32,367 nt of DNA from an uncultured Candidatus Saccharibacteria bacterium (GTDB taxonomy: Bacteria > Patescibacteriota > Minisyncoccia > Phycocordibacterales > UBA12079). The stretch's first letter is position 1, and each line of letters opens with the position of its first letter. Below the pieces are notes generated by a model, which worked only from the letters and a program-made list of their open reading frames with translations, did not search any database and was not told where the DNA came from. The stretch spans positions 1 through 32,367 of the forward strand of contig CAYUZR010000002.1 in the NCBI GenBank assembly GCA_964449555.1. The letters are read 5' to 3'. The position numbers and the translations under genes are program-made. Below are positions 4,767 to 32,367 of this stretch, one piece after another.

Positions 4767-4782
4767 AGCACAAAAAATTATT

Positions 4783-5982: not shown

Positions 5983-6160
5983 ATTTAGTATTTAATTGTA
6001 AATAAAACAAACGGTAAAGGACAAATATATAATTTTCTTTTTTCTGAATCTATAAATAAACCAACCCAAATATCATACCAAGCTAATGACAATCTGATAT
6101 TTTTAATTTTAAAAATTTGAATATCTTTCATTTTTTATTTATTCTCACAATCCATCTTTT

Positions 6161-6321
6161 AATAATTTCAAAATTGGATGAGATCCAGTTTGGTTTTGTA
6201 AAAAATTACTCGTAGGGTACCGGGTAGCACACCTTCGCTACGCTTCGGGGGGGGTACCCGGTACGCCTCCCTCGTATTTTTTATCAAAACAAAACCGAAG
6301 ATCGCTAATTTTGGAATTATT
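6161..6321. repeat. long imperfect hairpin element A, with a nested 56-nt palindromic core (6209-6264); right end contains the ppsA stop
   Basis: Left end aataatttcaaaattgg (6161-6177) pairs with ctaattttggaattatt (6305-6321) at 15/17 positions, and the arms continue imperfectly inward. The core ctcgtagggtaccgggtagcacaccttcgctacgcttcggggggggtacccggtac recurs inside murB. Confidence 0.8.
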
Positions 6322-8287
6322 TCTCTTCTTTACTAACTACTAGAGTAGTTTTCACCACCGTATCTGGAATCAAAGAAATTGAATCAATTTTACAGCCAAC
6401 CAAGAATTTAACAAATTCAGGATAATCACTCGGTGCTTGCCCACAAATTCCAACTTTTGATTTTGCTTTTCGAGCTTTTTTAACAAGCTCTTCAACCATC
6501 TTCATAACAGCTGGATTATTTTCATTTGAAGTACCTTCAATTTCCAAAGTTCCAGAAGCATCTCTGTCAATTCCAAGAACCAACTGGGTTAAATCATTTG
6601 AACCTACTGAAAATCCATCAAACACTTTCGCGAATTCTTCGGCTAACAAAATATTTGAAGGAATTTCTGCCATTACATATACCTCCAATCCATCCTTACC
6701 TTTTTTAAGTCCGTTTTTAGCCATAATATCAATAACCTTCTTACCCTCCTCAACAGTTCGACAGAAAGGAACAAGAACTTTTAGGTTAGTTAGCCCCATT
6801 TCTTCACGAACTTTCTTCAAAGCTTCACATTCTAAATCGAAAGCAGGCCTGAACTCTTTTGAATAATAACGGCTCGCACCTCTCCAGCCAATCATTGGGT
6901 TTGACTCTTCTGGCTCATAGGCTTGTCCCCCAATCAAGTTTGCATATTCGTTAGTCTTAAAATCAGATAATCGAACGATTACTGGTTTCGGATAAAACGC
7001 AGCACAAATTCTACCAACACCCTCAGCTAATTCATTAACGAAGAATTCTTTTTTGTTTTTATAATCACCTGTTATCTTTTCAATTTTTCTTTTTGTTTTT
7101 TGATCTTGTTTATTGAAGTTAATCAAAGCAAGTGGGTGAATTCTAATTGTATTGTTGATAATAAATTCAAGCCGAGCCAAACCGACCCCATCATTGGGAA
7201 TAAATGAATTAGAAAAAGCTAAATCAGGCTCACCAATATTCATCATTATTTTTGTTTTAGATTTTTTTAACTTACCAATATTAGTCTTCTTAATTTCGAA
7301 ATCTAACAAACCTCTATGAACTTTTCCTTTTTCTCCTTCTGAACAATTAATTGTCACTTTATCTCCTGTTTTAATTTTATCTGAACCATTTTCCGTTCCA
7401 ACAATACAAGGAATTCCTAATTCACGAGAAACAATCGCAGCGTGACAAGTACGTCCACCTTTATCGGTTACAATTGCTGATGCAATCTTCATAATTGGCT
7501 CCCAATCCGGATCAGTCATGCTTGTTACTAACACCTCGCCTTTCTTAAACTGAAGAATATCACTTACATCCATTATTCGATTTACCTTTCCTGCTCCAAT
7601 TTTTTGCCCAACAGATTGCCCTTCTATTATTACACTTCCATTTTCCTTTAATTTATATTCTTCAATAAAATTAGCATCTTTTTGACTCTGAACAGTTTCT
7701 GGCCGTGCCTGAACGATATATAATTTTTTATCTTTACCATCTAAAGCCCATTCTATATCCATCGGTCGATTATAATGTTTTTCGATAACCATTCCCCACT
7801 CAGCCAATTTTTTCGCCTGTACATCAGTAATCGATTGTTTTTTTCTATATTTTTCATCAACAGGCACATCTTTTACCGGCTTACCAAAACCACTGTTGTA
7901 AATCATTTTTATATCTTTTTCAGCGACAGTTTTTGAAATAATTGCCCCTGTTGGTTTGAAATAATAAAATTCATCAGGAGTTACCTTCCCTTGCACAATA
8001 TTTTCACCCAGTCCATAAATAGAATTAATTAAAACAACATTTTCGAAGCCGGACTCCGTATCAATAGTAAACATAACACCCGAGCATCCTTTATCTGCAC
8101 GAACCATTTTTTGAACACCAACAGAAAGTGCAATATCAAAATGATCAAAACCTTTATCTTCACGATAAGAAATAGCTCGATTTGTAAATAAAGATGCAAT
8201 ACACTTTTTAACAGCAACCAACAAAACCTTTTCTCCTTTAATATTTAGATAAGTTTCCTGCTGACCTGCAAAAGAAGCATCTGGCAA
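6317..8287 (-). CDS. ppsA: phosphoenolpyruvate synthase (pyruvate, water dikinase), C-terminal 656-aa fragment
   Basis: PDASFAGQQETYLN, phospho-His domain GGRTCHAAIVSRELGIPC, PEP-utilizer TIM-barrel end GSNDLTQL...GICGQAPSD. The frame is continuous upstream through VAVRSSATAED to two TAA codons. Confidence 0.9.
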   Translation of the reverse strand: MPDASFAGQQETYLNIKGEKVLLVAVKKCIASLFTNRAISYREDKGFDHFDIALSVGVQKMVRADKGCSGVMFTIDTESGFENVVLINSIYGLGENIVQGKVTPDEFYYFKPTGAIISKTVAEKDIKMIYNSGFGKPVKDVPVDEKYRKKQSITDVQAKKLAEWGMVIEKHYNRPMDIEWALDGKDKKLYIVQARPETVQSQKDANFIEEYKLKENGSVIIEGQSVGQKIGAGKVNRIMDVSDILQFKKGEVLVTSMTDPDWEPIMKIASAIVTDKGGRTCHAAIVSRELGIPCIVGTENGSDKIKTGDKVTINCSEGEKGKVHRGLLDFEIKKTNIGKLKKSKTKIMMNIGEPDLAFSNSFIPNDGVGLARLEFIINNTIRIHPLALINFNKQDQKTKRKIEKITGDYKNKKEFFVNELAEGVGRICAAFYPKPVIVRLSDFKTNEYANLIGGQAYEPEESNPMIGWRGASRYYSKEFRPAFDLECEALKKVREEMGLTNLKVLVPFCRTVEEGKKVIDIMAKNGLKKGKDGLEVYVMAEIPSNILLAEEFAKVFDGFSVGSNDLTQLVLGIDRDASGTLEIEGTSNENNPAVMKMVEELVKKARKAKSKVGICGQAPSDYPEFVKFLVGCKIDSISLIPDTVVKTTLVVSKEEK

Positions 8288-18840: not shown

Positions 18841-18854
18841 AGCTAATTAATTTA

Positions 18855-19052
18855 AATAATTACTCACAGACACCGAGTTACTCGCTCAGTTTTTAAAAAT
18901 AATTAAATTTTCTTAAGTATCAAATACTTTCGTCCTATCGGATTTCAAATATTTGATACTAGAAAATTCATTATTTTTCTAAAACTTCGCAGTAACATCG
19001 GTCTCTCGTTCGTAATTTCAAAAACCGAAATTCGCTGATTTTGGAATTATTT
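18855..19052. repeat. long imperfect hairpin element B between the ligase-like gene stop and the murB start
   Basis: Arms gacaccgagttactcgctcagtttttaaaaataat...agtatcaaata (18869-18927) pair with tatttgatact...aaaacttcgcagtaacatcggtctc (18950-19005). The right-terminal 35 nt (19019-19053) match 6289-6323 at 30 of 35 positions. Confidence 0.75.
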
Positions 19053-21206
19053 CCAGATTTCTTGGATGTAATACTCACCCTGTTCTTTAAAATTTGGATC
19101 TAATTTTATAACCCCATTAATAGCCTCAACAGCTTTTTGCTTAAAACCAGCTTCTGAATATGTTGCTGCCAAAGATAATAAGGTTTGGGCATCACCCGGA
19201 TTATTTTCGACTCTCAATTCAGCTATTGAAATTGCTTTTTGATAATTATTTTTTGAAAGATATGCTTGAATAAGTCGGTCATCATCAACTAATATCGTAC
19301 CAAAACCTTCAATCAACAAGTCTTCTGCTTGTTGAATTTCATCAATTTTTATAAGAGAGGTTGCATAGCCAATTCTTAAACTATCAAATTGTGGAGCTAA
19401 CTCAAATGCTTTTTTTATATATTCGTTAGCAGTACCTAAATCACCTTTGAATGTATAAACACTTCCTGTTAATTCCAAAAGAGAAATTTTATTAGGAGAT
19501 AATTCCAATGCTCTATCTAAATGTATTGCCGAATTATCAAGATCACCAATTCTACCCAGAAAAGTTCCTGTTATTGACTCAATTCTTGCATTATTTGAAT
19601 CTTCTTCAATTTGTTTTTCAAGATTAATCAATATCAAGTTAGCCATTTCTTGTTGTGCTTGTGGATTTAAAGAAGGAAGATATTTTATTCCTGCCTGAGC
19701 AAATTGCTCTCTTGCTTCTTGCCTCCCAACAAAACCATAAGAAATTGCTTTTTCAAAATATTCAAAATTCTTTGTAGGACTATCCTTGTGAGACTTCAAT
19801 GCATTCAATAAATTAAGATTTGTTGCTATTGGTTTTGCATTAAAGAAATAAATAGAGAAAAGAGCAGTAATAATAACCACAGGTATAGCAATAGAGTTAA
19901 TGCCATCAGAAATCTTAACTGTAGAAACTGTTTCTTCATCCACATTTATACTATGAATATATCCAAGAAGTGAGAAAAATAAGATGTAGCTAATTAAATG
20001 GTCAAAAACAAATAAATTATGGACAAAATACCCTACCAATAAACCAATTATTATACCTTTATCCAAAGTATTAAAATAATTATTTTCATCCTTAATTAAA
20101 TAATAAATAATTATCAAAAACAAAGCCAAATACCCCAGTAAGCCGAGCAAGCCTCCAGCAATTAACCAATCAAAGAAAACATTATGTGTTCTGTCGAACC
20201 ACTGTTCTTGATCGTACATATCTGGATTGTAATATTTATTGAAAACATAATTAAAGTTTTCTTGACCCCATCCCAAAACAGGATTTTCTTTAAAACCCTC
20301 CCAGGCCATTCCCCAAACCATAAAACGAGATCGTGTAGTTTTTTCCTCTAAAGAAATATCAGCTAAACGATTCAAAACAGGATGTTTATTAACAAAAGAG
20401 GTTTCTCTCATACTTATAAATAGACCAACAAAAACAACCAAACCAACAAGACTTCCTATACAAATTTTTCTCAATTTTTTATTTTGTCTTTCAAAAATAG
20501 CAACAACTAAACCAACAGTAAACATTCCTGCTAAAAAACCTAAAATAGCACCCCTCGTTCCTGTGTTATAGAGAATAACTGTTTGTAGAATTATTGCTAA
20601 ACCATAAAGCCATTTCAACAAACTATTTCCTCTTTCTCTGACCATGAAAAATAATGTTATGAAGATATGAAATAGCATATACACAGCTAAATAAGCCGAA
20701 TTTCCCATAGTAGCATCAAGCCTATCGGTACTTTGATGAATTTGGAATTTCCCCGCCATTTGCATTAAACCATAAAATCCCATTAACACACTGGCAAAAA
20801 TAGATATATTAAAAAACCGATGCCATAATTTCTCTGTCTGTAACACAGATGCGGTAACAACAAAAAATCCAAATAAATGCAACAAAGTTATCCAACCTTC
20901 CATTCTTTCAAAATTAGACCAAATACTTTTTAATGGATTTTCTCCTAAAATATCAGCTAAACCAATTATCGCAATGAACACCGCCGACAAAATAGCTATC
21001 CAAGAAAATTTTAATCTATACTTTTCATCTCTTAAAGCAAGAACAGCCCAAAGACACACCATTACCTCAACTAAAATTCTAAAAGCAAAAACTTTTCCTG
21101 TAATGAAGGGAAAAAATAAATTATTAAAAACCAAAAATGATATAAACGGAATTAAAAATACAATTCCTAAAATAGTGTTTCTTAAAATGTTATCTAAATT
21201 TTTCAT
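19047..21206 (-). CDS. O-antigen-ligase/polymerase-like (Wzy_C-type) polytopic membrane protein with a C-terminal TPR domain
   Basis: About 12 hydrophobic helices, then an ~240-aa soluble tail with TPR-like repeats (..LDRALELSPNK.., ..IKKAFELAPQF.., ..VENNPGDAQT.., ..VIKLDPNF..). The ATG at 21206 (MKNLDNILRN) is preferred over the track's TTG at 21314. Confidence 0.75.
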   Translation of the reverse strand: MKNLDNILRNTILGIVFLIPFISFLVFNNLFFPFITGKVFAFRILVEVMVCLWAVLALRDEKYRLKFSWIAILSAVFIAIIGLADILGENPLKSIWSNFERMEGWITLLHLFGFFVVTASVLQTEKLWHRFFNISIFASVLMGFYGLMQMAGKFQIHQSTDRLDATMGNSAYLAVYMLFHIFITLFFMVRERGNSLLKWLYGLAIILQTVILYNTGTRGAILGFLAGMFTVGLVVAIFERQNKKLRKICIGSLVGLVVFVGLFISMRETSFVNKHPVLNRLADISLEEKTTRSRFMVWGMAWEGFKENPVLGWGQENFNYVFNKYYNPDMYDQEQWFDRTHNVFFDWLIAGGLLGLLGYLALFLIIIYYLIKDENNYFNTLDKGIIIGLLVGYFVHNLFVFDHLISYILFFSLLGYIHSINVDEETVSTVKISDGINSIAIPVVIITALFSIYFFNAKPIATNLNLLNALKSHKDSPTKNFEYFEKAISYGFVGRQEAREQFAQAGIKYLPSLNPQAQQEMANLILINLEKQIEEDSNNARIESITGTFLGRIGDLDNSAIHLDRALELSPNKISLLELTGSVYTFKGDLGTANEYIKKAFELAPQFDSLRIGYATSLIKIDEIQQAEDLLIEGFGTILVDDDRLIQAYLSKNNYQKAISIAELRVENNPGDAQTLLSLAATYSEAGFKQKAVEAINGVIKLDPNFKEQGEYYIQEIWK

Positions 21207-21209
21207 GAT

Positions 21210-21678
21210 ATAGATTATAACGGAAAACAAATAGAGTTGAAAGAGATTAGAAAAGAAAGATATATAAGAGCATTCAAGCTGGCTAAAAAAGCTTTTGGCG
21301 GTTATAAAAAACAAATTGTCATCCTTTTAGGTCTTGGATTTTTAGGAGGTTTACTAGAAAGCCTTGGTGTAAACGCCATTATACCCCCTATTCTCTTTTC
21401 TTGATGGAACTTATTTGAAATCTGACGACATAATAATTAGAGTAATAAGAACTTTATTTGAATTCCTCCACATTCCTTTTACACTAAAATTCCTACTTAT
21501 ATCAATAGCTTCATTATTTATATTCAAAGCAATTGCTATATTCTATTCAAAATATCTTACAGAAAAAATATATGCTTCTTATATAAGAGATACACAAATG
21601 AAACTTTTTCGAAAAACTTTGGAGGCCTCCTGGCCGTATCTTTCCAAACAAAAAATCAGTTTTAAAGAGATTATTAAT
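21210..21678 (+). pseudogene. remnant of a low-GC ABC exporter (N-terminal transmembrane part only): no ATG, frameshifted at a C5 run, truncated
   Basis: Frame 1 reads ..YKKQIVILLGLGFLGGLLESLGVNAIIPP..TGA (21402-21404). Shifting one base at ccccc (21384-21388) gives LFSFLDGTYLKSDDIIIRV...LFRKTLEASWPYLSKQKISFKEIIN. This parallels residues ~25-175 of the 21674..23509 product. Confidence 0.75.
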
Positions 21679-23509
21679 CGCGACTACTATACATGCGCGC
21701 GAAATATGTCCCCTTCTCTTTAAGAAGTTCATCCGGCGTACCGGATTCAACAACCCGACCATCTTCGAGTACATACAACATATCCATCTCACGGACTGTT
21801 GAGAGCTGATGTGCGATGACACACACGGTAACCTTTCCCTTCAGCTCTTGGATGGTACGCTGGATATGTTGCTCAGATTCTGTATCCAACGCACTTGTCG
21901 CCTCGTCGAGCAAGAGAAGCTGGGGCTTGCGCGCCAAAGCACGCGCGATGGCGATACGCTGACGCTGTCCTGCTGAAAGCATGACACCGCGCTCGCCCAC
22001 CTTTGTGTTAAACCCTTCTGGGAGCTTTTCGATCACATCGTAAATATGCGCCCTCTTTGCCGCTTTTACGACATCTTCGTCGGATACATTTTCATCGAAA
22101 AAGCGAATATTTTCGCGCACCGTGTCATTTATTAAAAAAATATCCTGCGATACATAAGCGATATTTTTACGCCATATATTGATATCAATATTACTCACAG
22201 GTACACCATCCAACACTAAAGCACCTTTGGTCGGCTCGAGAAGTCTCAAAACAATATCAAACAAAGTTGTTTTACCAGAACCTGAGGGACCAATGATCCC
22301 TACCATAGCACCGTATGGAATTGATAAATTAACACCATTCAAAACATCGCCACCTGTATCGTAGGAAAATCCAATATCCTTAAACGCAAGCTCACGCTCA
22401 AATTGAAACGGCTTTGAATACTTTTTCTCTTTTTTATGTCGAACTTCTCGGTGTTTCGACGCCTCCTCACCGTATCTCAATACATTAGATGCGTATGGAG
22501 CCGCATCATTCATATTAAAGAGAATGGTCTGCCCAGACTGTACAGACGCAAAAATACGCTGAACCAAATAAACAATGGCAGCAAGTGCACCAACACTGTA
22601 AGATGTTTCATAATACGCAAACGCAACCACGACCGCAACAAAAATGACGGTAATCGGCTGAATAAAAATTACGACCAATTTCCTCAGCATAAAAGTGCGT
22701 ATATGTAACGCGCGGAATATTGAAAAAAAACTAACACCGATATCAGTAATCTTATCTTCCAAACCCATCGCTTTTACAATCTTCACGCCACCAAGATATT
22801 CATTTACTAGATGCGCAATACGCTTATTCATCTCAGCGGTTTCGCGGGCAGCGACACGACCTTTAGAAAAAACCGGTTTAAACACCAAAAACATCAAGGC
22901 ACCGATTCCTAACGCAAGAAATGTAATTGTTTCTGATATGTTGAGTGCAACAAAAAGATAAATTGCGAGCCCGGAAGCAAACATAATCATTTTCACAAAC
23001 AAATCAAGTAATGCTGCGGTTTGTAGCACATTAATTTTTAAAAGTGTTTCCAGATTTCCCTGTCGCTGTTTTAGGAGATATGGCCAACTTGCATAAAGTG
23101 TTCGCTTAAAAAGACGGTTCATCAAGTCCTCTTGATATTTTGTCTTAAGATGTACCTGTATGTAGTAAAAGGCTAGCAACACCACTGCTTTCAAAGTAAA
23201 AAGTGTCACAATGAGGGCGAGGATCGCAGGTAAAGTAAGCTCAATTCCTGTAAATGAAAAAGTGTTTAAAATCGCCTGTGATATAAAATCGTCTCCGGAC
23301 TGCCCATTTCCGATGAACACAGAAAACAATGGGATAAGCGCACTAATACCAACTGCTTCAAGAATACCACTTAAAAATCCCAATACTAAAAATATAGCCA
23401 CATATCTCCGGTATCCGGCAATCAAGCGCAATATGAGTCTTGCAGCTCTCCCCACCTCACTAAATTTTAGACGTTGCATAGTTAACATATGTATATGTAT
23501 ATTATTCAC
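21674..23509 (-). CDS. ABC exporter, fused permease plus ATPase (MsbA/PglK-like type I exporter)
   Basis: Six-helix TMD, then GPSGSGKTT (Walker A), LSAGQRQRIAIARAL (signature), LLLLDEATSALD (Walker B), IAHQLST (H-loop). The start is uncertain: GTG at 23509, or ATG at 23488 or 23479. Confidence 0.92.
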   Translation of the reverse strand: MNNIHIHMLTMQRLKFSEVGRAARLILRLIAGYRRYVAIFLVLGFLSGILEAVGISALIPLFSVFIGNGQSGDDFISQAILNTFSFTGIELTLPAILALIVTLFTLKAVVLLAFYYIQVHLKTKYQEDLMNRLFKRTLYASWPYLLKQRQGNLETLLKINVLQTAALLDLFVKMIMFASGLAIYLFVALNISETITFLALGIGALMFLVFKPVFSKGRVAARETAEMNKRIAHLVNEYLGGVKIVKAMGLEDKITDIGVSFFSIFRALHIRTFMLRKLVVIFIQPITVIFVAVVVAFAYYETSYSVGALAAIVYLVQRIFASVQSGQTILFNMNDAAPYASNVLRYGEEASKHREVRHKKEKKYSKPFQFERELAFKDIGFSYDTGGDVLNGVNLSIPYGAMVGIIGPSGSGKTTLFDIVLRLLEPTKGALVLDGVPVSNIDINIWRKNIAYVSQDIFLINDTVRENIRFFDENVSDEDVVKAAKRAHIYDVIEKLPEGFNTKVGERGVMLSAGQRQRIAIARALARKPQLLLLDEATSALDTESEQHIQRTIQELKGKVTVCVIAHQLSTVREMDMLYVLEDGRVVESGTPDELLKEKGTYFARMYSSRD

Positions 23510-24323
23510 TCGGTAGAATCTTCAAGCTCCTAGTTATATGTTTATCCGAAGTATGGGCACCCAAAAAAAATTTAAGTGGTCGGATCAAACGCAAAAAATT
23601 ATCCTGCTTCCAGGCAGTATCGTAACTAATTGTATTGAGACGCGATGCGTCATGACGAACTCGACTCCCTCCCGCAATATGCGTCGACGAGGTCGCCGAA
23701 TTCCAGTCTGAAAACGGCGGGAGACCAAATCCTGACATAATCGCTTCGGAAATGCTCTCAGGTGCCGCGCAAAAATCTTTATAACAAAGAGTTGTGTATG
23801 GGATACCAATTTCACGAAGAGAGCGTGTAAAACGTCGTCGTTGCTGTGCCCAGCGCTTGAAGTTGAGCAGATCGCCGATTATCGGCGGGGCGACATCTGT
23901 TCTTCGCATTGAGTACGCCCACGCGCTCGGCTCTTTCATAAGGTACACCGCACGCACATCATACCCAGCAGCTAGAGCAACCTTAGACCCCACTTGAAAG
24001 CCCTCTATGGTTTTCGAAGCGTCTATGACAACACTATACTTCTTTAGCGCGGGAGAATGAAGTACATCATTATACCATCCTTCAAGATTATTAGCAGTAC
24101 GAGGAACCGATGACCAGAATGGACATCCACCGAGAGTTTGGCCACAAGTACACTCGCGCCCTTCTGTTGGGCGAAGTTCTTGACGAGGCATTTCACCTGC
24201 AACTTCGCCAAGCGCTACCGCCCCCGGATATCGCGAAAGGTATGCATTGAGCACAGTAGAGCCACTACGACCAAGGCCAATAATATACAAAAAAAGCTTT
24301 GGGTGTTTGTTTATTTTGTTCAT
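23502..24323 (-). CDS. sulfotransferase-family protein
   Basis: PAPS 5'-phosphosulfate-binding loop IIGLGRSGSTVL near the N-terminus. A later VYLMKEPSAWAYSMRR region sits where the 3'-phosphate-binding motif lies. This is the most GC-rich gene in the window. Confidence 0.7.
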   Translation of the reverse strand: MNKINKHPKLFLYIIGLGRSGSTVLNAYLSRYPGAVALGEVAGEMPRQELRPTEGRECTCGQTLGGCPFWSSVPRTANNLEGWYNDVLHSPALKKYSVVIDASKTIEGFQVGSKVALAAGYDVRAVYLMKEPSAWAYSMRRTDVAPPIIGDLLNFKRWAQQRRRFTRSLREIGIPYTTLCYKDFCAAPESISEAIMSGFGLPPFSDWNSATSSTHIAGGSRVRHDASRLNTISYDTAWKQDNFLRLIRPLKFFLGAHTSDKHITRSLKILPSE

Positions 24324-24341
24324 AATGTGATATTCATAGTA

Positions 24342-25514
24342 TCATTTTTTGTACTCTTTATTAAGTATCTTCTTATATATCTCGTATACCGCCTCATCGA
24401 ACGGCTGTTTATTTTCCATTGCACGACGGGCTTCTTTACTCATCATTTCTACCTTGTCGCGATGATCATAAAGATACTTAATCTTTTCCCCGAGCGACTT
24501 TGCATCACGGACAGGAACCACAAAACCGGTTTTGCCATCTTCGACGATACTCTGCGCATTCTCGGTAGTAACAATTGGTAAACCGCAAGCCATCGCTTCC
24601 ATAACCACCTTCGGATTTCCCTCTGCAAGTGAAGGCAAAGCAAACACTGATGCTTCTCTATAATGTTCTTCCGGTTGTGATGTGTTGCCGACCCATCGTA
24701 TACTCGAATTCTGAGCAATGCGCCTGATGTAACTCTGTTTAAGTTCCTCTGGCATTTCTCCATAACTACCAATAAGAACTAATTCCGCATTCTTTAGATT
24801 CAGTGATTCCCACGCGTCCAAAAGATAGTGCAGACCTTTGTGCAGTTTCGTATATGCGGCATATAGCACTCGAAATGGCTCTTCCTTGGAGCGCGGTTGC
24901 CTAGGTGGCGTAAATCGTTTTATATCAATATCCGTGTTAGCGACAAAAATCCGCTCTGCAGGATACCCCTGTGCAATATAAGAACGCTTCACAAAATCAG
25001 AAATAGCAATGACATAATCAAATTCATTGAGATGCCCACTTGTACGAGCATATTCGGCAAAGAAACCTTTGTATAGAGAGAAGCCAAGTAATCGTGATTC
25101 TTCTCTTTCTAAATCAGCACTGAATTGCATGTGCCCATTCCTTGTGATATCAACCGTAATGGAGCCGTTTTTTTGCGACTTTCGCAAAGTTCGCGGCAAA
25201 AAACGTCCGTCATGAAATAGAACTACATCGGTTTTTTGTAGCCGATATTGAGTGCAAAAATCAAAACGCTCTTCCCGCTGTCTTCGAGAGGGAAATGTAA
25301 GATTGAAAGCTTTCTCCACCCCCCTAAAGAAGTAATGAATAATGGTTGGTATGGCCTGTACGGTATTTTTAAAATAAAAATCCGTATTAGTCCTACAAAT
25401 AACCTGGGTCAATTCACCTGTTTTTGAAAAAACATTGATGACGGGCAAAATATTAGCTGTGGGATGACTTGTCTTCTTTCCCAAATCTGCGAATGTGATG
25501 ACGGAAATCGACAT
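24342..25514 (-). CDS. GT4-family glycosyltransferase (Glycos_transf_1), paralogue of 29795..30949
   Basis: LPSLAEGNPKVVMEAMACGLPIVTTENAQSIVEDGKTGFVV is the E-x7-E GT4 C-terminal motif. TGA stop. Confidence 0.88.
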   Translation of the reverse strand: MSISVITFADLGKKTSHPTANILPVINVFSKTGELTQVICRTNTDFYFKNTVQAIPTIIHYFFRGVEKAFNLTFPSRRQREERFDFCTQYRLQKTDVVLFHDGRFLPRTLRKSQKNGSITVDITRNGHMQFSADLEREESRLLGFSLYKGFFAEYARTSGHLNEFDYVIAISDFVKRSYIAQGYPAERIFVANTDIDIKRFTPPRQPRSKEEPFRVLYAAYTKLHKGLHYLLDAWESLNLKNAELVLIGSYGEMPEELKQSYIRRIAQNSSIRWVGNTSQPEEHYREASVFALPSLAEGNPKVVMEAMACGLPIVTTENAQSIVEDGKTGFVVPVRDAKSLGEKIKYLYDHRDKVEMMSKEARRAMENKQPFDEAVYEIYKKILNKEYKK

Positions 25515-25518
25515 ATAT

Positions 25519-27480
25519 TTATTTCTTTATAATAACCGCTATCGCATCTTTGCCTCGTATTGGATTAGTACTCTTCAAACTTTCAAAAAAGTGAATCTCT
25601 TTAATCTGCGTTTCAAGAATCTTTTTCTCTTCTGGGGTGGAAAGGGGAGATGACCATACACCGGTTGTCTTAAGATTTTTTAACAACTCAAGTGTTGTGG
25701 GTACATCTGAGCGTTCAAAACCCTCGGGCTGATATCGCAAATCTTCTATAAAGAAGAGTCCGCCTGAAGTAAGATGAGGAAACAAATAAGATAGAGTGAT
25801 CTGTTGATGTGGCGATGCATGAAGCGCGTCTTCTACCACAATATCAAGCTTTTTTTCTATATCTAATATTTTTTTAAGGTCATCGCGAGAACCCTGATCG
25901 CCTTGAACAATAAAAGATTTTTTATCTTTGGATTGTTTAAACGTACTAATATCAAATCCGATAATAGTAGCGTTCGGCAAATAATCACGCCACATGCGTA
26001 GCGATGGAGCCGTGGGATACAACTCTTCACTACTACCTCTACGATTACGATCCTGTTTTGAACTAATCTGAAATTTATCTCGCAATAATCCTATTTCACA
26101 TAATGTAAATTCTTCGGACCTTTTGTTTTTGAAAAAGTGGTCATAAACACGAATATAATTATGTTGACCTACACCTTTATCTGTTTTTACCTTATTTGCA
26201 AATCGCATTAAATCGTTAGCGCGATACAACTTCACCCAATAAGCACAATACTTCATAAAAGCAAGTGGATTCAACCCAATTTTAAATACTAAATCAAATA
26301 ACTTATATATTGAGTTCATATCATTTGTTGAATTTTTATGTAAATACTTTTTTTTGTATGCTTTTGCTATTAGCATCGAATATTTTTCAGCGGTTTTGCG
26401 AATGTCGAATTCTTCCGCTGTTTTTCTCGCGTTTTTGCTTATCTTTTCGTAGTCTGCATATACCATCTTTTCAAAACTTTCTACAACAGCATCTACAGAT
26501 GATTCCGGTATGAAAAAACCGTTTTCTCCGTCAACAAGCAATTCGTCTGTGCCAGCAGTTTTCGTCGAGACAAGCGGTAAACCTGACGCAAGTGCTTCAA
26601 GATAAGCAATACTCAACCCTTCAATATCAGACGTGGACACAAAAATATCGCTCATTTTATAGAACTTTTCGATATCACGACGTAGACCAAAGAGTATTAC
26701 CACACCATCAAGCCCCAATTCTCGAACACGCGCCTCAAGCTTTTTGCGCATTCCCCCCTCGCCTGCTACCGCCAACTTATATTCCGGATGCTTCTTATGA
26801 AAACGCGCAAAGCCCTCAAGCATAAGCATATGATTTTTCTTAGGCTTCAGCCCCGCCACGTTTAAGAGCACCTTGTCAGACGTCTTGAATCCAAGTTCCT
26901 GTTTAAGCGTATCTTTTGACGGTAAAGCCGCGATCGCGGATTGTATTTTTTCTATATCGACACCGTTTTTAATCACTACAAATTTATTTTTTGGTATGCG
27001 TTCCTGCTTGATAGTAAAGTCAGCGACCGTATTTGAAACAGCAATGATACGGTACGACAATCGCGCCAACCATCTATCAAGAGTTATTTTCGCCCACGTT
27101 TTATCAACATAAGTGTTGTGCTCAATAGGTATAACCACATAACCCATAAATAACTTGAGTATCCTCACGATGGTATTACTAAAGAAAAGATTGGGCATCA
27201 CAACATCTGGTTTAATAGACCGCAGCGTCTTATAAAACTCCACCCAACTTGAAATATCTTTGAAACCATGAAAGTTTAGTTTATACACCGGAAGCCACGA
27301 TGGCAATTCATCATACAGTACTACTTTACCTGGAATCTGAGAGAGTGTGATAAACGAAAGATCAATGGTATTTTTATCTAACAGAGGCATCAACTCTGTC
27401 AATTGTTTCTCCGCACCACCAACACAAAAGTTATCTATAACAATTGCGACTTTTATTTTTTGTGAATTAATTATTTTCAT
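25519..27480 (-). CDS. bifunctional fusion: GT4 glycosyltransferase (aa 1-387) plus SAM-dependent methyltransferase-like domain (aa 388-653)
   Basis: N-terminal part: VSTSDIEGLSIAYLEALASGLPLVSTKTAGTDELLVDGENGFF. C-terminal part begins at the internal ATG at 26319 (MNSIYKLF) and is colinear with the 30953..31732 product (APSLRMWR.YLP, GDQ.SR.DL, DDALHASPHQQITLS.LFPH..SGG.FFIEDLR). Confidence 0.85.
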   Translation of the reverse strand: MKIINSQKIKVAIVIDNFCVGGAEKQLTELMPLLDKNTIDLSFITLSQIPGKVVLYDELPSWLPVYKLNFHGFKDISSWVEFYKTLRSIKPDVVMPNLFFSNTIVRILKLFMGYVVIPIEHNTYVDKTWAKITLDRWLARLSYRIIAVSNTVADFTIKQERIPKNKFVVIKNGVDIEKIQSAIAALPSKDTLKQELGFKTSDKVLLNVAGLKPKKNHMLMLEGFARFHKKHPEYKLAVAGEGGMRKKLEARVRELGLDGVVILFGLRRDIEKFYKMSDIFVSTSDIEGLSIAYLEALASGLPLVSTKTAGTDELLVDGENGFFIPESSVDAVVESFEKMVYADYEKISKNARKTAEEFDIRKTAEKYSMLIAKAYKKKYLHKNSTNDMNSIYKLFDLVFKIGLNPLAFMKYCAYWVKLYRANDLMRFANKVKTDKGVGQHNYIRVYDHFFKNKRSEEFTLCEIGLLRDKFQISSKQDRNRRGSSEELYPTAPSLRMWRDYLPNATIIGFDISTFKQSKDKKSFIVQGDQGSRDDLKKILDIEKKLDIVVEDALHASPHQQITLSYLFPHLTSGGLFFIEDLRYQPEGFERSDVPTTLELLKNLKTTGVWSSPLSTPEEKKILETQIKEIHFFESLKSTNPIRGKDAIAVIIKK

Positions 27481-28094
27481 TTTTCTAGGAATACATAATA
27501 ACCACTTGTCTGTTTAGACTCTAACTTGCCTGACAATATATCAAGTATATTACCACATTTTTTAAAGACAGTGTATCTTCCAAGAGGCCTCAACTTAAAC
27601 CACGTGGCAATAGCCCGTCTTACTTTGATTATCTCACATTTAGCAAACGGCTTTGAGAGCCAACGCAATCCATCTTCGGTAAATCTCCAAAAGTCACCAT
27701 AATAACCTTTTTCTGCATGATAATAATATAGAAAAGGAACATATATGAAAGCGTAACCTCCCGGCCTCAGCACACGATATATTTCCTTATAGGCTTTAAT
27801 AGGGTTCTCCACGTGTTCTAATACAGCCATACAAATAATGGCGTCGATGGAATTATCATCAAACGGCATATTATGAACATCTCCAACTATATCCGGATGA
27901 TAAGTGTCTACCGGATCCATTATTTTATAATCAACCTTTTCAACATAAGACCTCAACCATTCTCTCGACGAATCGTATCTATTATTCTTATCCTTCATCA
28001 AGCGCAGTCCGCCTCCGATATCAATAACCTCTTTTTTTTCTTTAAAGATTCTAGTTACCCTCTCGTTAAAAAATTTTTGCCAAGGTGTATTCAT
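27477..28094 (-). CDS. class I SAM-dependent methyltransferase (Methyltransf_11-like)
   Basis: VIDIGGG, IDAIICMAVLEHVENP, LRPGGYAFIYVP. ATGA start/stop overlaps at both ends. Confidence 0.85.
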   Translation of the reverse strand: MNTPWQKFFNERVTRIFKEKKEVIDIGGGLRLMKDKNNRYDSSREWLRSYVEKVDYKIMDPVDTYHPDIVGDVHNMPFDDNSIDAIICMAVLEHVENPIKAYKEIYRVLRPGGYAFIYVPFLYYYHAEKGYYGDFWRFTEDGLRWLSKPFAKCEIIKVRRAIATWFKLRPLGRYTVFKKCGNILDILSGKLESKQTSGYYVFLEK

Positions 28095-29146
28095 ATAAAT
28101 GCAATTATATCATCTGCTCTTCTCTCCCAAGTAAATTCTCTTACTCGCTGGGTAGCCTTAGTGGCTTTGATTTGAGCCTCATCATACCTTTCTAACACTT
28201 CAGAAATCCTTTTGGTTACATCATTTGAATTATTCGGATCAAATAGGTATGCGGTAGATTCATCCAAAACCTCTCGTATTGACGGCAAATCTGTGGACAC
28301 TATTGGATTTCCACTCGCCATATATTCAAACATTTTAAGTGGCGACATATATTTGGTATAGTGTTTTGTGTTCGGATAATTCATCACAAGAATATCAACA
28401 GCTTTCATATAGACAGGCACCTCACAGGGTTTAGCTTTAGAGACTATTAAAAGTTCCACTTCTGGATGTCTTTTCTTAACATCACTAATCACTTTATCCA
28501 ATTCCCCAACTCCCTTCTCTTCTCCCATCGTCTTGAGTTTACCAACATACGCAATAATTTTTTTATTTAGGGGAAGATCGAGCCTCTTTCGCAGTTGTTC
28601 CTTTGAATTTTTTATACTTTCAAATACATTCAAATCCACCCCGCTCGGTGCGACCATTATTTTTTCTTTAGAAACGCCGAAAGATAGGTAATATTCTTTC
28701 AATCCGTTGCTAATAACCACAAGCTTATTCAATCTCTTAAGCAATCCCGCCACAACCCATTTCTTCTTCGCTGTATGTGATTCCCATACAATATTTTTTT
28801 TAAAAAAACTTAAGTAAGAAAGAGAGAGTTCATCCCGACCATAGATGATATCCACCTTCTTGAATAATACATAAAAAAAGGCAGACACCGCAAAAGAGAG
28901 TGCCTGAACCAAAAATCCAATTTTACCAAACCGAACAAAGTCCAATGTCGGCAACTTGGTGATTTTAAAGCACTCTTCCATTCCATAATGCTGAAAAGGA
29001 CTTTCCTTCGAGACATTGTACCTGCGGGGCACCACAAGCTCCACAACGTTACCGTGCAAGACAAAAGCCTCGCACATCTTCATCGTTGCAAGCCCGTGTG
29101 CTTTACCGGTTGGGATGCGAATATTGGCGAGATAATACATTTTCAT
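28091..29146 (-). CDS. GT4-family glycosyltransferase
   Basis: GT-B layout with KYMSPLKMFEYMASGNPIVSTDLPSIREVLDESTAYLF (E-x7-E-like). ATGA overlaps. Confidence 0.8.
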   Translation of the reverse strand: MKMYYLANIRIPTGKAHGLATMKMCEAFVLHGNVVELVVPRRYNVSKESPFQHYGMEECFKITKLPTLDFVRFGKIGFLVQALSFAVSAFFYVLFKKVDIIYGRDELSLSYLSFFKKNIVWESHTAKKKWVVAGLLKRLNKLVVISNGLKEYYLSFGVSKEKIMVAPSGVDLNVFESIKNSKEQLRKRLDLPLNKKIIAYVGKLKTMGEEKGVGELDKVISDVKKRHPEVELLIVSKAKPCEVPVYMKAVDILVMNYPNTKHYTKYMSPLKMFEYMASGNPIVSTDLPSIREVLDESTAYLFDPNNSNDVTKRISEVLERYDEAQIKATKATQRVREFTWERRADDIIAFI

Positions 29147-29808
29147 AATTGTTTTTTGATACGTTCATGCACTATAATAGCATTTTCTGTAAGTGATTTT
29201 GTGCCGTCTATCTTTATTGTTGAAATACCTTTTGTGGCAAGTGCCAAAAGAATATCCTGTTGAGTTTGCTGGGACCGACTCTGTGACTCCTGAAGTCCAC
29301 CTACTCTACGACCCGGCTCTCGCTTTTTCATTCTGGCGATAGACTCTTCTACCGGCGTGTCCACAAAAACTAATAATGACTCCTTAGGAAGTCTATTATA
29401 AATAAGATCTATTACAGCCGTCTTGCTAAGAATGTTTCTTATTGCAAGATTAGAAAGTCTTTGAATATATCCCGCATCCCATAATACTATAATGTTGTTT
29501 TGATGGGTAGTTTGATATTGAAGTTTTTGATGCTCATGTAGTCGTGTAATTAGTTTTTCAAGACTTGAACCTTTTGCGCGTGATAGTTTATATAGCAATA
29601 CAGCGATCGAAAAATCAAGATATTGCGGGCGTAACAACATCCAAAAAAGTTTATATTTCCAGGTTCTATTTTCTGGAAAAAAGTTTTCCCTTGTAGCACA
29701 AGGCAAATATTCTCTTTCAAACATTTTCCTCACTTCTTCTACCAGGGTAGTCTTTCCTGAGCCCGGTATACCTATAAATTCTATATACATAACATTAATG
29801 AGAGCCAT
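29143..29808 (-). CDS. P-loop NTPase, nucleoside/nucleotide-kinase-like small-molecule kinase candidate
   Basis: FIGIPGSGKTTLVEEV (Walker A), LWDAGY, LLVFVDTPVEESIARMKKR (dNK/TMPK-like layout). The alternative start ATG at 29790 (MYIEFIG) avoids overlap with the upstream gene. Confidence 0.6.
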   Translation of the reverse strand: MALINVMYIEFIGIPGSGKTTLVEEVRKMFEREYLPCATRENFFPENRTWKYKLFWMLLRPQYLDFSIAVLLYKLSRAKGSSLEKLITRLHEHQKLQYQTTHQNNIIVLWDAGYIQRLSNLAIRNILSKTAVIDLIYNRLPKESLLVFVDTPVEESIARMKKREPGRRVGGLQESQSRSQQTQQDILLALATKGISTIKIDGTKSLTENAIIVHERIKKQL

Positions 29809-30949
29809 TCTCGCGTCTTAAGATTTCTTGATAAATTTCGAACACCGCTTCTCCGAATGGTTTTTTATGCTCCACCACCTTACGCGCTTCTCTGCCCATA
29901 CGCTCTGCCACATCTCTATTGTCATACAAGTACCTGATTTTTTCTGCGAGAGCTTGAGCGTCTCGTATCGGTACTACAAAACCACTTTTTCCGTCTTCAG
30001 ATACACTTTGTGCGTTTGTGGTTGTAATAACAGGCAATCCATGTGCCATTGCCTCCATCACCACTTTCGGATTTCCCTCGGTAAGCGAAGGTAACACAAA
30101 CGCAGACGCCCTACGATAATACTTTGCTGGCATATCGGTACTTCCCTCCCACGTAATACTTGAGTCTTTCTCTATTATACTATCGCAATACTTTTTAAGT
30201 TTATCCGGAACATCTCCGCTGTATTTTCCTACCAATGTTAATTCAGCATTTGGTAATTTTAGTTTTCGCCACGCATCAAGAAGATATGGTAGACCCTTGC
30301 GCGCATTAGTATAAGAAAGGTAAAGCACTCTAAATTTATCCTCCTTGTGTATCTGCTCCGGTGCTGGCGGCAAATTAATATCAGTACACGCAACAAAAAC
30401 TCTTTCTGATGGAAATCCATACTTAATGTAAGAAGATTTAACAAAATCAGAAATGGCAATGATGTAATCAAACGATTTAACAAGGGTACTCATCTTTTCA
30501 AACGACTCTGTATTCAGGGAGCTTTCAAATTTTCGATGTTCTTCCGTGTGAATATCTTTATCAAACAAAGGGTGTGCAACAGTGGCAATACCAACAGCAA
30601 TACTCCCATTTCGTTTTGCTTTCTCTACAACACCCCCAAACCGAGATGGTGGATGAACGATAACAATGTCGGTTGGCTCAAGTCTCCACTTTACAAAGAG
30701 ATGCGACAACATACCATACAACCGCTCAAATGAAAGCCCTAAAATTTTTTCGAGCGCTCGCAGAGGGTATCTTACAAAAGAAGGAATCGCCGAGTATGTA
30801 TTCGGAAAATGAAAATCAGTATTGATCTGGCATATTACTTGCTTTAGCTCTCCCCTGCATGCAAGCTCTTCAATTACCGGAAGGATCCCCGGCGTTTTGA
30901 GATTAGTTTTTTTACCCAAATTAGCAACTGTAACAATTGAAACTGACAT
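29795..30949 (-). CDS. GT4-family glycosyltransferase, paralogue of 24342..25514
   Basis: LPSLTEGNPKVVMEAMAHGLPVITTTNAQSVSEDGKSGFVV. Colinear with the 24342..25514 product from MS.S..T.A.LGKKT onward. Confidence 0.88.
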   Translation of the reverse strand: MSVSIVTVANLGKKTNLKTPGILPVIEELACRGELKQVICQINTDFHFPNTYSAIPSFVRYPLRALEKILGLSFERLYGMLSHLFVKWRLEPTDIVIVHPPSRFGGVVEKAKRNGSIAVGIATVAHPLFDKDIHTEEHRKFESSLNTESFEKMSTLVKSFDYIIAISDFVKSSYIKYGFPSERVFVACTDINLPPAPEQIHKEDKFRVLYLSYTNARKGLPYLLDAWRKLKLPNAELTLVGKYSGDVPDKLKKYCDSIIEKDSSITWEGSTDMPAKYYRRASAFVLPSLTEGNPKVVMEAMAHGLPVITTTNAQSVSEDGKSGFVVPIRDAQALAEKIRYLYDNRDVAERMGREARKVVEHKKPFGEAVFEIYQEILRRENGSH

Positions 30950-30952
30950 GAA

Positions 30953-31732
30953 TTATTTTTTTATAATAGCGACGAGAGCATCTGCGCCAAATATTGGATC
31001 AGAACCTTTTAAGCTTCCAAAAAAGTGAATTTCTTTTACTTGTGTTTCAAGGATATTTTTCTCTTCAGGTGTAGAAAGGGGGGAATTCCATTTACCGGTT
31101 TCAGCAAATGTTCTAAGTAAATCGAGAGTTTTTGGTACATCTTCACGCTCAAACTCTTTAGGTTGATGACGTAAATCTTCGATAAAGAAGATCCCCCCAG
31201 AGTTAACATGAGGAAATAGAAAAGAAAGTGTGATTTGTTGGTGTGGAGATGCATGCAATGCATCATCAATAATAACGTCGTATTCTGAATATTTGTCAAC
31301 AATCTTCTGAAGATCCTCACGCGAACTCTGATCTCCCTGAATAATTGTACATTGAGGATCATTCGGTTGCGCAAATTTCCTAATATCAAAACCAACAAGT
31401 GAAGCCTTCGGTAGATATTTTCGCCACATACGCAAAGACGGTGCTACCATGTTTGTATCAGTTAAAAGTGGTTTTCGCATTCTCCCCCTAAGAAGACCAA
31501 CCTCACAGAACTGTAAATTCTCATTTCTACGAGAACGCAAGAAAAAATCATACGCTCGTACATAATTATGACCCGGGATACCCTTATCGGTGTATTCTTC
31601 GCCCGCAAACTGCAATAAATCATTGTACCTGTACTGTTTGAGATGGCACACAAAATATTTAGCAAATGCCTTAGGACTTGTAAATATTTTTTTAAACAGT
31701 GAAAGTGCTTTTTTTAACTTTTTTACATTCAT
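30953..31732 (-). CDS. SAM-dependent methyltransferase-like protein, paralogue of the C-terminal domain of 25519..27480
   Basis: TDKGIPGHNYVRAYDFF, FCEVGLL, APSLRMWRKYLPKA, IIDDALHASPHQQITLSFLFPHVNSGGIFFIEDL. Confidence 0.8.
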   Translation of the reverse strand: MNVKKLKKALSLFKKIFTSPKAFAKYFVCHLKQYRYNDLLQFAGEEYTDKGIPGHNYVRAYDFFLRSRRNENLQFCEVGLLRGRMRKPLLTDTNMVAPSLRMWRKYLPKASLVGFDIRKFAQPNDPQCTIIQGDQSSREDLQKIVDKYSEYDVIIDDALHASPHQQITLSFLFPHVNSGGIFFIEDLRHQPKEFEREDVPKTLDLLRTFAETGKWNSPLSTPEEKNILETQVKEIHFFGSLKGSDPIFGADALVAIIKK

Positions 31733-31739
31733 ATTTTTA

Positions 31740-32367
31740 CTATTTTTCTACACCTACTCTAACAAAATCTCTACCTGTATGCAGTACGGTTGGTGTTGTT
31801 CCAAAAATTCTACCTAAAACTTCGATACCGTCCGTACCTTTTCGAATATCAATTATCAATCTACCCCCTTTGTTAAGTTGCCTATAAACATCATCTATAT
31901 ATGTATCTACAGAAAAATGAAAACCCCAAGAAAGTAACGACATCACCAGATCAAAATTTTCAGCAGGAAACGGCGATGTCGAAATATCAATAGTCTTAAT
32001 TTTCTCAGCCGGTACACCATTATCCTCCAGAAAACTACGAGTGCATTGAAAAGAGTGGTAATGAGGAAAATCTTTTGCAGAAACGTGATAACCCCCGTGC
32101 CGCGTAGGCGACACACCCTCTTTATCGAGCAAGTACAAAGTGGGGCTCGAGTCAAAATGATGATAGAGCGTTAAATCTATACCGCCCAATCCGGCGCCGA
32201 TATCAAGCGTGGCGCTCGGAGAAGAAGGAAGATATGCTTGTATCGTGTCGAGGATGTCATTCATCTCATCTTTATGGAGCTCCTCCACCCTCTTTTTATT
32301 GAATAGCTCATATAACTCAAAAATATAACCGGCACCTCCATGATCATAAAATTGTTTTAAACCCAAT
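31740..32367 (-). CDS. class I SAM-dependent methyltransferase; the 5' end probably lies beyond the window
   Basis: LDIGAGLGGIDL (motif I), FDLVMSLLSWGFH, LNKGGRLIIDI. The ORF is open to the right edge, and the track's M is a TTG. Confidence 0.75.
   Translation of the reverse strand, partial: LGLKQFYDHGGAGYIFELYELFNKKRVEELHKDEMNDILDTIQAYLPSSPSATLDIGAGLGGIDLTLYHHFDSSPTLYLLDKEGVSPTRHGGYHVSAKDFPHYHSFQCTRSFLEDNGVPAEKIKTIDISTSPFPAENFDLVMSLLSWGFHFSVDTYIDDVYRQLNKGGRLIIDIRKGTDGIEVLGRIFGTTPTVLHTGRDFVRVGVEK

Follow-up and report, generated by a model that had tools for sequence, protein, structure and literature searches.

A laterally imported, methyltransferase-rich glycan gene block beside a conserved ligase-like gene in a Campbellbacteria genome

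The window analyzed here (the whole stretch of 32,367 nucleotides, contig CAYUZR010000002.1) carries a tightly packed set of glycan genes that ends in an ATP-binding cassette (ABC) exporter and lies next to a gene for a Wzy_C protein with tetratricopeptide repeats (Wzy_C-TPR). It is the complete contig C2 of a metagenome-assembled genome (MAG) of 608 kb in 63 contigs with 32% GC. The host is a member of the Campbellbacteria (Paceibacterota, Candidate Phyla Radiation or CPR) with a tiny genome, and its relatives in the same genus are Candidatus Campbellbacteria of the Paceibacterota/Parcubacteria, among them CP011215 (GW2011_OD1_34_28, here G005) and RIFOXYC2_FULL_35_25 (G003). Ten co-directional open reading frames (ORFs) had been proposed on the minus strand at 21674-32367, and all of them were found there (Table 1). 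The families to which the original prediction assigned them were upheld by hidden Markov model searches of Pfam and NCBIfam, by a sequence search of the PDB and by a fold search. The set comprises four family 4 glycosyltransferases (GT4), one of them fused to a methyltransferase (MT), two MT domains of the MycE/TylE type, two MTs of the Methyltransf_11 type, a protein of the sulfotransferase fold (ST), a protein of the thymidylate-kinase (TMK) fold (KIN), and an ABC exporter with fused transmembrane and nucleotide-binding domains (TMD-NBD).

The packing of these genes was largely as described. At 27477-27480, 28091-28094 and 29143-29146, the ATGA overlaps of stop and start codons were found exactly as given. 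The remaining gaps were given as 3-18 nucleotides (nt), which holds for the junctions of 3, 4, 7 and 18 nt, while two others depend on the start codon chosen. The GT4a/KIN junction is -14 nt, or +4 nt from the ATG at 29790 that homologues use; the ST/ABC junction is -8 nt with the GTG at 23509 and +13 nt with the ATG at 23488, which gene callers choose in independent assemblies.

Table 1. Genes, domains and remnant of the glycan locus in the window
Feature	Coordinates	Strand	Assignment
MT1	31740..32367	-	class I S-adenosylmethionine (SAM) methyltransferase, Methyltransf_11 type; Pfam PF08241, E = 2.4e-5
MTL	30953..31732	-	MycE/TylE-type metal-dependent sugar O-methyltransferase; weak in Pfam (E = 0.004)
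GT4a	29795..30949	-	family 4 glycosyltransferase; Pfam Glycos_transf_1, E = 1.2e-28
KIN	29143..29808	-	P-loop protein, thymidylate/deoxynucleoside-kinase fold; probable start ATG 29790; Pfam Thymidylate_kin, 29.1 bits
GT4b	28091..29146	-	family 4 glycosyltransferase; Pfam Glyco_trans_1_4, E = 5.2e-13, and Glyco_transf_4
MT2	27477..28094	-	Methyltransf_11 class I SAM methyltransferase; Pfam PF08241, E = 1.5e-16
Fusion, GT4 domain (residues 1-386)	26323..27480	-	Pfam Glycos_transf_1, E = 1.2e-35, and Glyco_transf_4
Fusion, MycE-type MT domain (residues 387-653)	25519..26322	-	paralogue of MTL, 54% identity
GT4c	24342..25514	-	family 4 glycosyltransferase; Pfam Glycos_transf_1, E = 2.3e-29
ST	23502..24323	-	sulfotransferase fold; GLGRSGST phosphosulfate-binding loop; Cys-rich insert
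ABC exporter	21674..23488	-	fused TMD-NBD half-transporter, 604 residues; Pfam ABC_membrane and ABC_tran
ABC exporter remnant	21240..21660	+	frameshifted 5' part (~150 codons) of a native, oppositely oriented gene
Wzy_C-TPR	19047..21206	-	O-antigen-ligase / O-oligosaccharyltransferase family; Pfam Wzy_C, E = 5.8e-23, and TPRs

Since the window is a whole contig, the gene array is cut at 32367 by the contig end and not by biology. In fact, MT1 lacks ~44 N-terminal codons, and its whole gene of 252 amino acids (aa) was found in two contigs of the same population (L121 and L125). MT1 is 76% identical to a stand-alone protein of 253 aa in L028, and its domain is fused to a GT4 in L009. The latter arrangement suggested that MT1 might be the C-terminus of a second GT4-MT fusion, which was ruled out by the stand-alone 252-aa gene in the same-population contigs. 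These contigs (among them L121, L125 and L126) come from at least four samples, encode KIN and ST proteins identical to those of the window and repeat its arrangement, including the gap between the exporter and Wzy_C-TPR; the missing upstream part of the locus was found on no other contig of the MAG. As they run on upstream, the ten-gene operon of the original prediction proved to be an artefact of the contig end: 12 genes belong to the imported block and about 21 to the locus as a whole. In full, the block is composed of genes for a TagF-like glycerophosphotransferase, a glycosyltransferase (GT) resembling family 8 (GT8-like), MT1, a MycE-like MT, a GT4, the TMK-fold kinase, a GT4, MT2, the GT4-MycE-like MT fusion, a GT4, the sulfotransferase-fold protein and the ABC exporter. 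It spans ~13 kb within a surface-glycan locus of ~20 kb, which amounts to ~3% of the 0.6-Mb genome.

The order upstream of MT1 was read from the same-population contigs. MT1 is preceded by the gene for a GT8-like protein of 288 aa and, before that, by the TagF-like gene on the opposite strand, and farther upstream, in DNA of native GC content, four more GTs, an NYN nuclease and a transposase of the IS200 type were found. The transposase (Y1_Tnp) and the NYN-domain nuclease lie among the native-GC GT genes at L126:5873-6556 and L126:10044-10574. Beyond these GTs come a gene for a surface protein with LTD and PKD domains and then a TraG/TrwB-like ATPase. The surface protein (L126:3167-4651) comprises 494 aa in an LTD-PKD-LTD arrangement, carries a signal peptide and is anchored in the membrane at its C-terminus; there is an overlap of 8 nt between its gene and that of the first GT4 of the locus, and L031 has the same flank. 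It may be considered a candidate glycoprotein acceptor.

The block differs from its surroundings in composition as well as in descent. GC content in L126 rises at the TagF-like gene, from 27-34% before it to 37-41% in and after it, and the genes of the ten-gene region have 37-47% each, versus 31% for the Wzy_C-TPR gene and 32% for the genome. An assembly chimera at the GC junction is improbable, since the junction recurs in at least four independent assemblies. Identities were measured against L031, which derives from an organism of ~44% GC: the flanking TraG-like ATPase and Wzy_C-TPR reach 50% and 42%, whereas the TagF-like protein, the 288-aa protein and the ABC exporter of the block reach 75%, 68% and 73%. 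Furthermore, a scar was found at the junction. The 467-nt gap between the stop of the cassette ABC gene and the start of Wzy_C-TPR has 29.6% GC and contains a remnant of an exporter gene with one frameshift, truncated exactly where the higher-GC cassette ends, and the gap is kept in independent assemblies. The remnant matches residues 12-149 of the cassette ABC with 33% identity (tblastn, E = 1e-20), and it is nearer to the native, divergently oriented exporter of the relative G076 (42% identity). A divergent Wzx gene of the kind present in G003 and G005 was also considered as the source of the remnant in the gap; no similarity was found, and the ABC remnant was found instead. The shift in GC, the contrast in identity between flank and block and the native ABC remnant together indicate that a native cluster of the ABC type was replaced by the ~13-kb block. 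As judged from these comparisons of sequence, the block was imported horizontally, and its donor was a distant relative among higher-GC Paceibacterota.

The genes were expected to be clustered rather than scattered in related genomes, and comparative genomics found them clustered in five related cassettes. The variants on other metagenome contigs (L009/L113, L027/L031 and L028) are 65-84% identical to the window cassette and share a core in the order MTL-GT4-KIN-(GT4b or MT)-MT2-GT4-MTL...ABC. In L027, two sulfotransferase genes stand immediately upstream of KIN. Relatives, on the other hand, carry wholly different glycan clusters beside Wzy_C-TPR, of the Wzx or the ABC type and often rich in methyltransferases. 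Wzx and methyltransferases were found in G001; Wzx, a strong Sulfotransfer_1 protein, and FkbM and other methyltransferases in G003; Wzx, NeuB, a cytidylyltransferase, a radical-SAM enzyme, a pyruvyl transferase, a TagF-like enzyme and methyltransferases in G005; and GDP-mannose dehydratase, an epimerase, an ABC exporter, an aminotransferase, a B12-radical-SAM enzyme and an asparagine synthase homologue in G076. The last two types of protein in G076 are a WsfA-like asparagine synthase homologue and a B12-binding radical-SAM enzyme, encoded in its native ABC-type cluster (L112, contig C17 of G076, at 3494-5254 and 5418-7373). The interval between murB and Wzy_C-TPR holds a gene for a major facilitator superfamily (MFS) transporter in G001 (L026:1283-2458) and an unannotated ORF of 398 aa in G003 (L025:1337-2533), while it is only a 206-nt spacer in the window (18841-19046) and likewise in G005. 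This position is evidently a hypervariable site of glycan genes, adjoining a ligase-like gene that is conserved, and heavy decoration is normal there. The unusually high ratio of decoration to backbone claimed for the window disappears once the five or six upstream GTs are counted, and loci rich in methyltransferases are usual in relatives.

The expectation that the MT-like ORF would match a methyltransferase family was confirmed. A search of MTL against the PDB (phmmer) retrieved MycE (3SSM, E = 5.1e-20) and TylE (8IA9, E = 3.1e-16) over residues 37-188. The mechanism of MycE-type enzymes involves Asp, Glu and Asp as Mg2+ ligands together with a general-base histidine (PMC9539859). The corresponding DDxxH...ED signature is kept in MTL, where IIDDALHASPH...FFIEDL is aligned to VIDDGSHINAH...YVIEDM of MycE, and the fusion domain and the two L009 copies carry the motif as well. 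Hence the catalytic core with its Mg ligands and general-base histidine is shared with MycE and TylE, for which the substrate is the hydroxyl of a sugar. The match, however, is limited to residues 182-325 of the MycE chain: MTL and the MT domain of the fusion, with 259-267 aa and a short N-terminal extension, are without the N-terminal auxiliary (tetramerisation) domain of MycE. They also differ in being paired with or fused to a GT4, and in that MycE and TylE act on a macrolide whereas the proteins here probably act on a lipid-linked glycan. The MycE-like MT domain is elsewhere fused to PF04765 (TOD1/MUCI70 glycosyltransferase-like) in metagenomic proteins of ~500 aa (P0035-P0044), which is consistent with a glycan-directed role of this domain.

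A duplication within the block was revealed by the paralogues. Each MycE-like MT copy is followed by a GT4 gene, and the two GT4 proteins, GT4a and GT4c, are 51% identical over their full length; together with the 54% identity of MTL to the fusion domain, this indicates that a two-gene MT+GT4 module was duplicated internally, and one copy of it is evidently fused to the preceding GT4. The fusion is a protein of 653 aa that corresponds to two genes in L009, a GT of 375 aa (72% identity) and an MT of 267 aa (76%). Among 5.8 billion proteins, a single further GT4-MycE-like MT fusion of this kind was found, and neither the fusion nor the MycE-like domain was present in any of 40 relatives from genus to order level. 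As for the other members of the set, MT2 is 77% identical to its L009 counterpart and was found in every cassette variant, and GT4b has a TuaC/TuaH-like region with sub-threshold matches to TuaC and TuaH of NCBIfam.

KIN belongs to a family of ~17 members, every one from metagenome cassettes of this type, and no relatives were found in viral contigs of IMG/VR, giving no sign of phage carriage of the cassette. Its AlphaFold 2 model (pLDDT 87) was best matched in Foldseek by TMK, deoxynucleoside kinases and nucleoside monophosphate kinases at E ~1e-6 and a TM-score of ~0.6. The loop GxPGSGKTT is invariant, while the DRY/DRF motif of TMK is replaced by WDAGY. A role as the housekeeping thymidylate kinase was rejected, because a canonical tmk on contig C5 scores 52 bits versus 24-29 bits for KIN. 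The idea of KIN as an obligate partner of ST was weakened by L028, in which an intact KIN is accompanied by only a 57-codon remnant of ST.

The sulfotransferase-like ORF, too, had been expected to match its family, and the sulfotransferase fold was found by Foldseek with the Pfam score at the threshold: Sulfotransfer_3 was matched with 27.5 bits (cut-off 27) over residues 13-48 only. The nine best PDB matches of its AlphaFold model (pLDDT 76) are all sulfotransferases, with E of 1e-5 to 2e-4 and TM-scores of 0.42-0.51, and include TPST1/2, CurM-ST, 3RNL, 3-OST, StaL and Stf0. The GLGRSGST loop is conserved, and the motifs align with those of bona fide Sulfotransfer_1 proteins; in the second motif (VYLMKEPSAWAYS) the invariant Ser and Pro are retained, with Lys in the place of the Arg of most sulfotransferases. 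ST is intact in at least seven assemblies of the cassette. Furthermore, a strong Sulfotransfer_1 gene (E = 1.6e-22) lies at the equivalent locus of G003, a 100%-complete Campbellbacteria genome (L025:6119-6997). Sulfotransferases without a visible supply of 3'-phosphoadenosine 5'-phosphosulfate (PAPS) occur across the lineage, with a genuine adenosine 5'-phosphosulfate (APS) kinase in none of 30 relatives, G003 among them. The ST-fold proteins might be active with a donor that the bacteria cannot make, either PAPS from the host cell or a PAPS-like 3'-phosphorylated nucleotide produced by KIN; this seems quite unlikely. Cj1415 of Campylobacter has a comparable activated-donor role for O-methyl-phosphoramidate.

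The exporter consists of PF00664 and PF00005 and has about six hydrophobic helices. With the exporter of L027 it shares 73% identity, and it forms the invariant 3' gene of all cassette variants. In one sample (L115:2701-4517) the cassette ABC gene is split into ORFs of 396 and 210 aa, which reflects either frameshift variation within the population or an error of assembly. An orthologue-like exporter was found in 10 of 50 Paceibacterota genomes with Wzy_C-TPR and is located within ~2.5 kb of Wzy_C-TPR in at least five of them. Based on the terminal position in each cassette and the linkage to Wzy_C-TPR, the exporter would flip a glycan linked to polyprenyl diphosphate (polyprenyl-PP).

Wzy_C-TPR matches PF04932 with 81.8 bits over residues 239-396 and has at least ten hydrophobic segments, as well as a loop of 86 residues (267-352) with invariant Arg, His, Glu and Asp. 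In the PDB search, the membrane domain alone found no match by sequence, and the full profile was swamped by TPR matches. The adjacent low-GC, TPR-fused protein had been named as the only candidate transfer enzyme, which agrees with its being the sole Wzy_C gene of the genome. It is a core gene across the order, present in single copy in 19 of 21 relatives with 40-75% identity, and at least 563 relatives of it exist in Paceibacterota. Only 34-38 nt separate it from the upstream cassette ABC gene in L027 and L028. Moreover, it is kept beside at least five unrelated glycan clusters, which indirectly fits the relaxed glycan specificity of enzymes of the WaaL/PglL/WsfB type. Wzy_C-TPR is put forward as a candidate for the final transferase. 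Nothing specific was found in the literature on O-antigen ligase, glycosylation or sulfotransferase in CPR/Patescibacteria.

The closest described system is the ABC-dependent S-layer O-glycosylation of Geobacillus and Paenibacillus, whose surface-layer glycosylation (slg) clusters encode a GT-MT fusion (WsaE), which makes a 2-O-methyl cap, a TagF-like domain (WsfC), an asparagine synthase homologue (WsfA) and WsfB, a Wzy_C O-oligosaccharyltransferase with C-terminal TPRs (PMC2943079). The slg clusters of P. alvei and G. stearothermophilus share with the present locus a monoderm host, a lipid-linked glycan that is assembled in the cytoplasm and leaves through an ABC transporter (as proposed here), a GT-MT fusion, a TagF-like domain, a final transferase of Wzy_C and TPRs (a candidate here), and densely packed, overlapping genes with an atypical GC content that suggests lateral transfer. 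In contrast, slg exporters are two-protein Wzm/Wzt transporters (ABC-2) and not a fused TMD-NBD protein; the priming transferase and nucleotide-sugar genes lie inside slg clusters and outside the block here; the MT domains here are of the MycE/TylE and Methyltransf_11 types; sulfotransferase-fold and TMK-fold genes are added; and no S-layer gene was identified. Helicobacter pylori Wzk and Campylobacter PglK resemble the exporter in combining ABC_membrane and ABC_tran in a half-transporter that stands last in a glycan cluster and is followed by a transferase acting en bloc, which is a Wzy_C-family ligase (WaaL) in H. pylori and PglB in Campylobacter. They differ in that the exporter scores 236 bits versus the PglK cut-off of 1000 bits, and in that the acceptor in a monoderm CPR bacterium cannot be lipid A-core. 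The pathways of E. coli O8/O9a share GT4 enzymes of the mannosyltransferase type, methyl (and phospho) modification and completion of the glycan before ABC export, whereas Wzm/Wzt, the carbohydrate-binding module of Wzt, a WbdD-type kinase or coiled coil, and lipopolysaccharide (LPS) are all missing here. The analogy to WbdD drawn in the original prediction was not supported: there is no homology, KIN has a thymidylate-kinase fold and is not protein-kinase-like, and the exporter is not of the Wzm/Wzt type and has no Wzt-type carbohydrate-binding module, so that a control of chain length by terminal caps is unsupported.

The statement that the window contains no priming transferase, no Wzx/Wzy pair and no nucleotide-sugar genes holds. 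A priming transferase was found in no cassette, including the contigs that extend past 32367; the single priming (Bac_transf) gene of the genome lies on contig C43 beside another GT4. Neither Wzx nor LytR-CpsA-Psr (LCP) ligases were found in the genome, and Parcubacteria are without LPS (PMC5220378). Lacking Wzx, LCP and LPS, the genome leaves as candidates one priming enzyme, the cassette exporter as flippase and Wzy_C-TPR as the extracytoplasmic transferase. The preferred interpretation, with a probability of roughly 0.6, is that the locus makes a lipid-linked methylated glycan, for which the ABC exporter would be the flippase and Wzy_C-TPR the enzyme of transfer to a surface acceptor, most likely a protein. 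The glycan, linked to polyprenyl phosphate, would be primed by the Bac_transf enzyme encoded on C43, and the GT4 and GT8-like enzymes would extend it on the cytoplasmic side of the membrane. It would then be O-methylated by four SAM-dependent MT domains; two of them are Mg-dependent and MycE-like, and each of these two has a GT4 as its partner or fusion domain. Sulfation and/or phosphorylation may take place as well. The fused TMD-NBD exporter would flip it, and Wzy_C-TPR would transfer it en bloc to the acceptor outside the membrane. For a host with neither LPS nor LCP ligases, a surface protein is the most likely acceptor, comparable to the targets of WsfB and PglL. What we infer here is the lipid carrier, the sequence of the steps, which sugars are used, what Wzy_C-TPR does and where the glycan is attached, while the gene families, the import, the junction scar, the duplication, the clustering, the conserved position beside Wzy_C-TPR and the lack of Wzx, LCP and PAPS genes are firmly indicated by the sequence data. 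What is retained of the overall interpretation offered at the outset is a dense array of genes for a glycan that is methylated and perhaps also sulfated or phosphorylated, an array that ends in an exporter of the MsbA/PglK class; the extent of the operon, the ratio of decoration and the analogy to WbdD are not retained.

Several observations weigh against this pathway. The exporter scores under the NCBIfam equivalog cut-offs of HepA (346 versus 725), MsbA (303 versus 602) and PglK (NF050066; 236 versus 1000), so its substrate class is read from context only. The exporter and Wzy_C-TPR genes are 467 nt apart in this genome and need not be co-transcribed, and the priming enzyme is located on another contig, its tie to the locus being assumed. 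Neither PF01747 ATP sulfurylase nor a genuine APS kinase was found in the genome and 30 relatives, a CysD/N-type sulfurylase not having been searched for; the sole APS_kinase match of the genome, with 28.7 bits, is a generic P-loop protein of 165 aa. With no PAPS pathway found, sulfation is uncertain and would need an external or unconventional donor. In L028, ST has shrunk to a C-terminal remnant of 57 codons (L028:9427-9600) that is 75% identical to residues 215-258. The MAG is ~92% complete, so absences of genes from it are not absolute.

The main rival explanation, unlikely on balance, is a teichoic-acid-like or glycolipid-anchored polymer, in which a glycan with glycerol phosphate is exported by the ABC protein and either ligated by Wzy_C-TPR to a membrane glycolipid or some other non-protein acceptor, or left on its lipid carrier. 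A TagF-like gene (Glyphos_transf) heads the imported block and is also present in the G005 locus; such domains, however, occur in protein-glycan clusters too, for example in WsfC of P. alvei (PMC2943079). The sub-threshold likeness of GT4b to the teichuronic-acid enzymes TuaC and TuaH points the same way, as does the inclusion among Wzy_C enzymes of ligases with lipid acceptors, such as WaaL. Against these stand the absence of an LCP ligase for attachment to peptidoglycan, an exporter that is not of the TagGH (ABC-2) type, and the fact that no genes for the synthesis of a lipid anchor were seen at the locus.

Alternatively, Wzy_C-TPR could be a Wzy-type polymerase or be functionally unconnected with the block; the product that the ABC protein exports directly would then be an exopolysaccharide or capsule that is released. 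The Wzy_C domain of Pfam is found in some polymerases as well, and among the NCBIfam models the exporter matches HepA best, an exporter of envelope polysaccharide. The 467-nt gap in this genome would also agree with such a product, but the distance is only 34-38 nt in L027 and L028. Wzy polymerases normally co-vary with their repeat unit, whereas Wzy_C-TPR keeps 40-75% identity across the order while the neighbouring glycan genes differ entirely, and ABC-dependent pathways need no Wzy; this explanation is thus improbable. An intracellular methylated polysaccharide, comparable to methylglucose lipopolysaccharide (MGLP) or methylmannose polysaccharide (MMP) of mycobacteria, with the ABC protein exporting something else, would account for a cluster rich in MTs and GTs without an internal priming transferase. 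It is very improbable, given that the exporter is the invariant 3' gene of each cassette variant and linked to Wzy_C-TPR, that a native exporter of the same family was formerly present at the same site, and that no MMP-type hydrolase is present.

In conclusion, the block is a gene cluster of an ordinary type, found in bacteria that have been little studied. To our knowledge, the envelopes of CPR/Patescibacteria are essentially uncharacterised, and the episymbionts among these bacteria live by surface contact with host cells. The conserved position (MurB, then Wzy_C-TPR) with its swapped glycan clusters and a fresh scar of replacement is the pattern of serotype switching known from O-antigen and capsule loci, which implies that the surface glycans of ultra-small bacteria are under strong diversifying selection from phages, host recognition or both. 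The locus provides parts that can be expressed, namely the MycE-type MTs paired with GT4, the exporter and the ligase-like enzyme. With at least 563 relatives, Wzy_C-TPR is a candidate for a general glycan transferase of the Paceibacterota.

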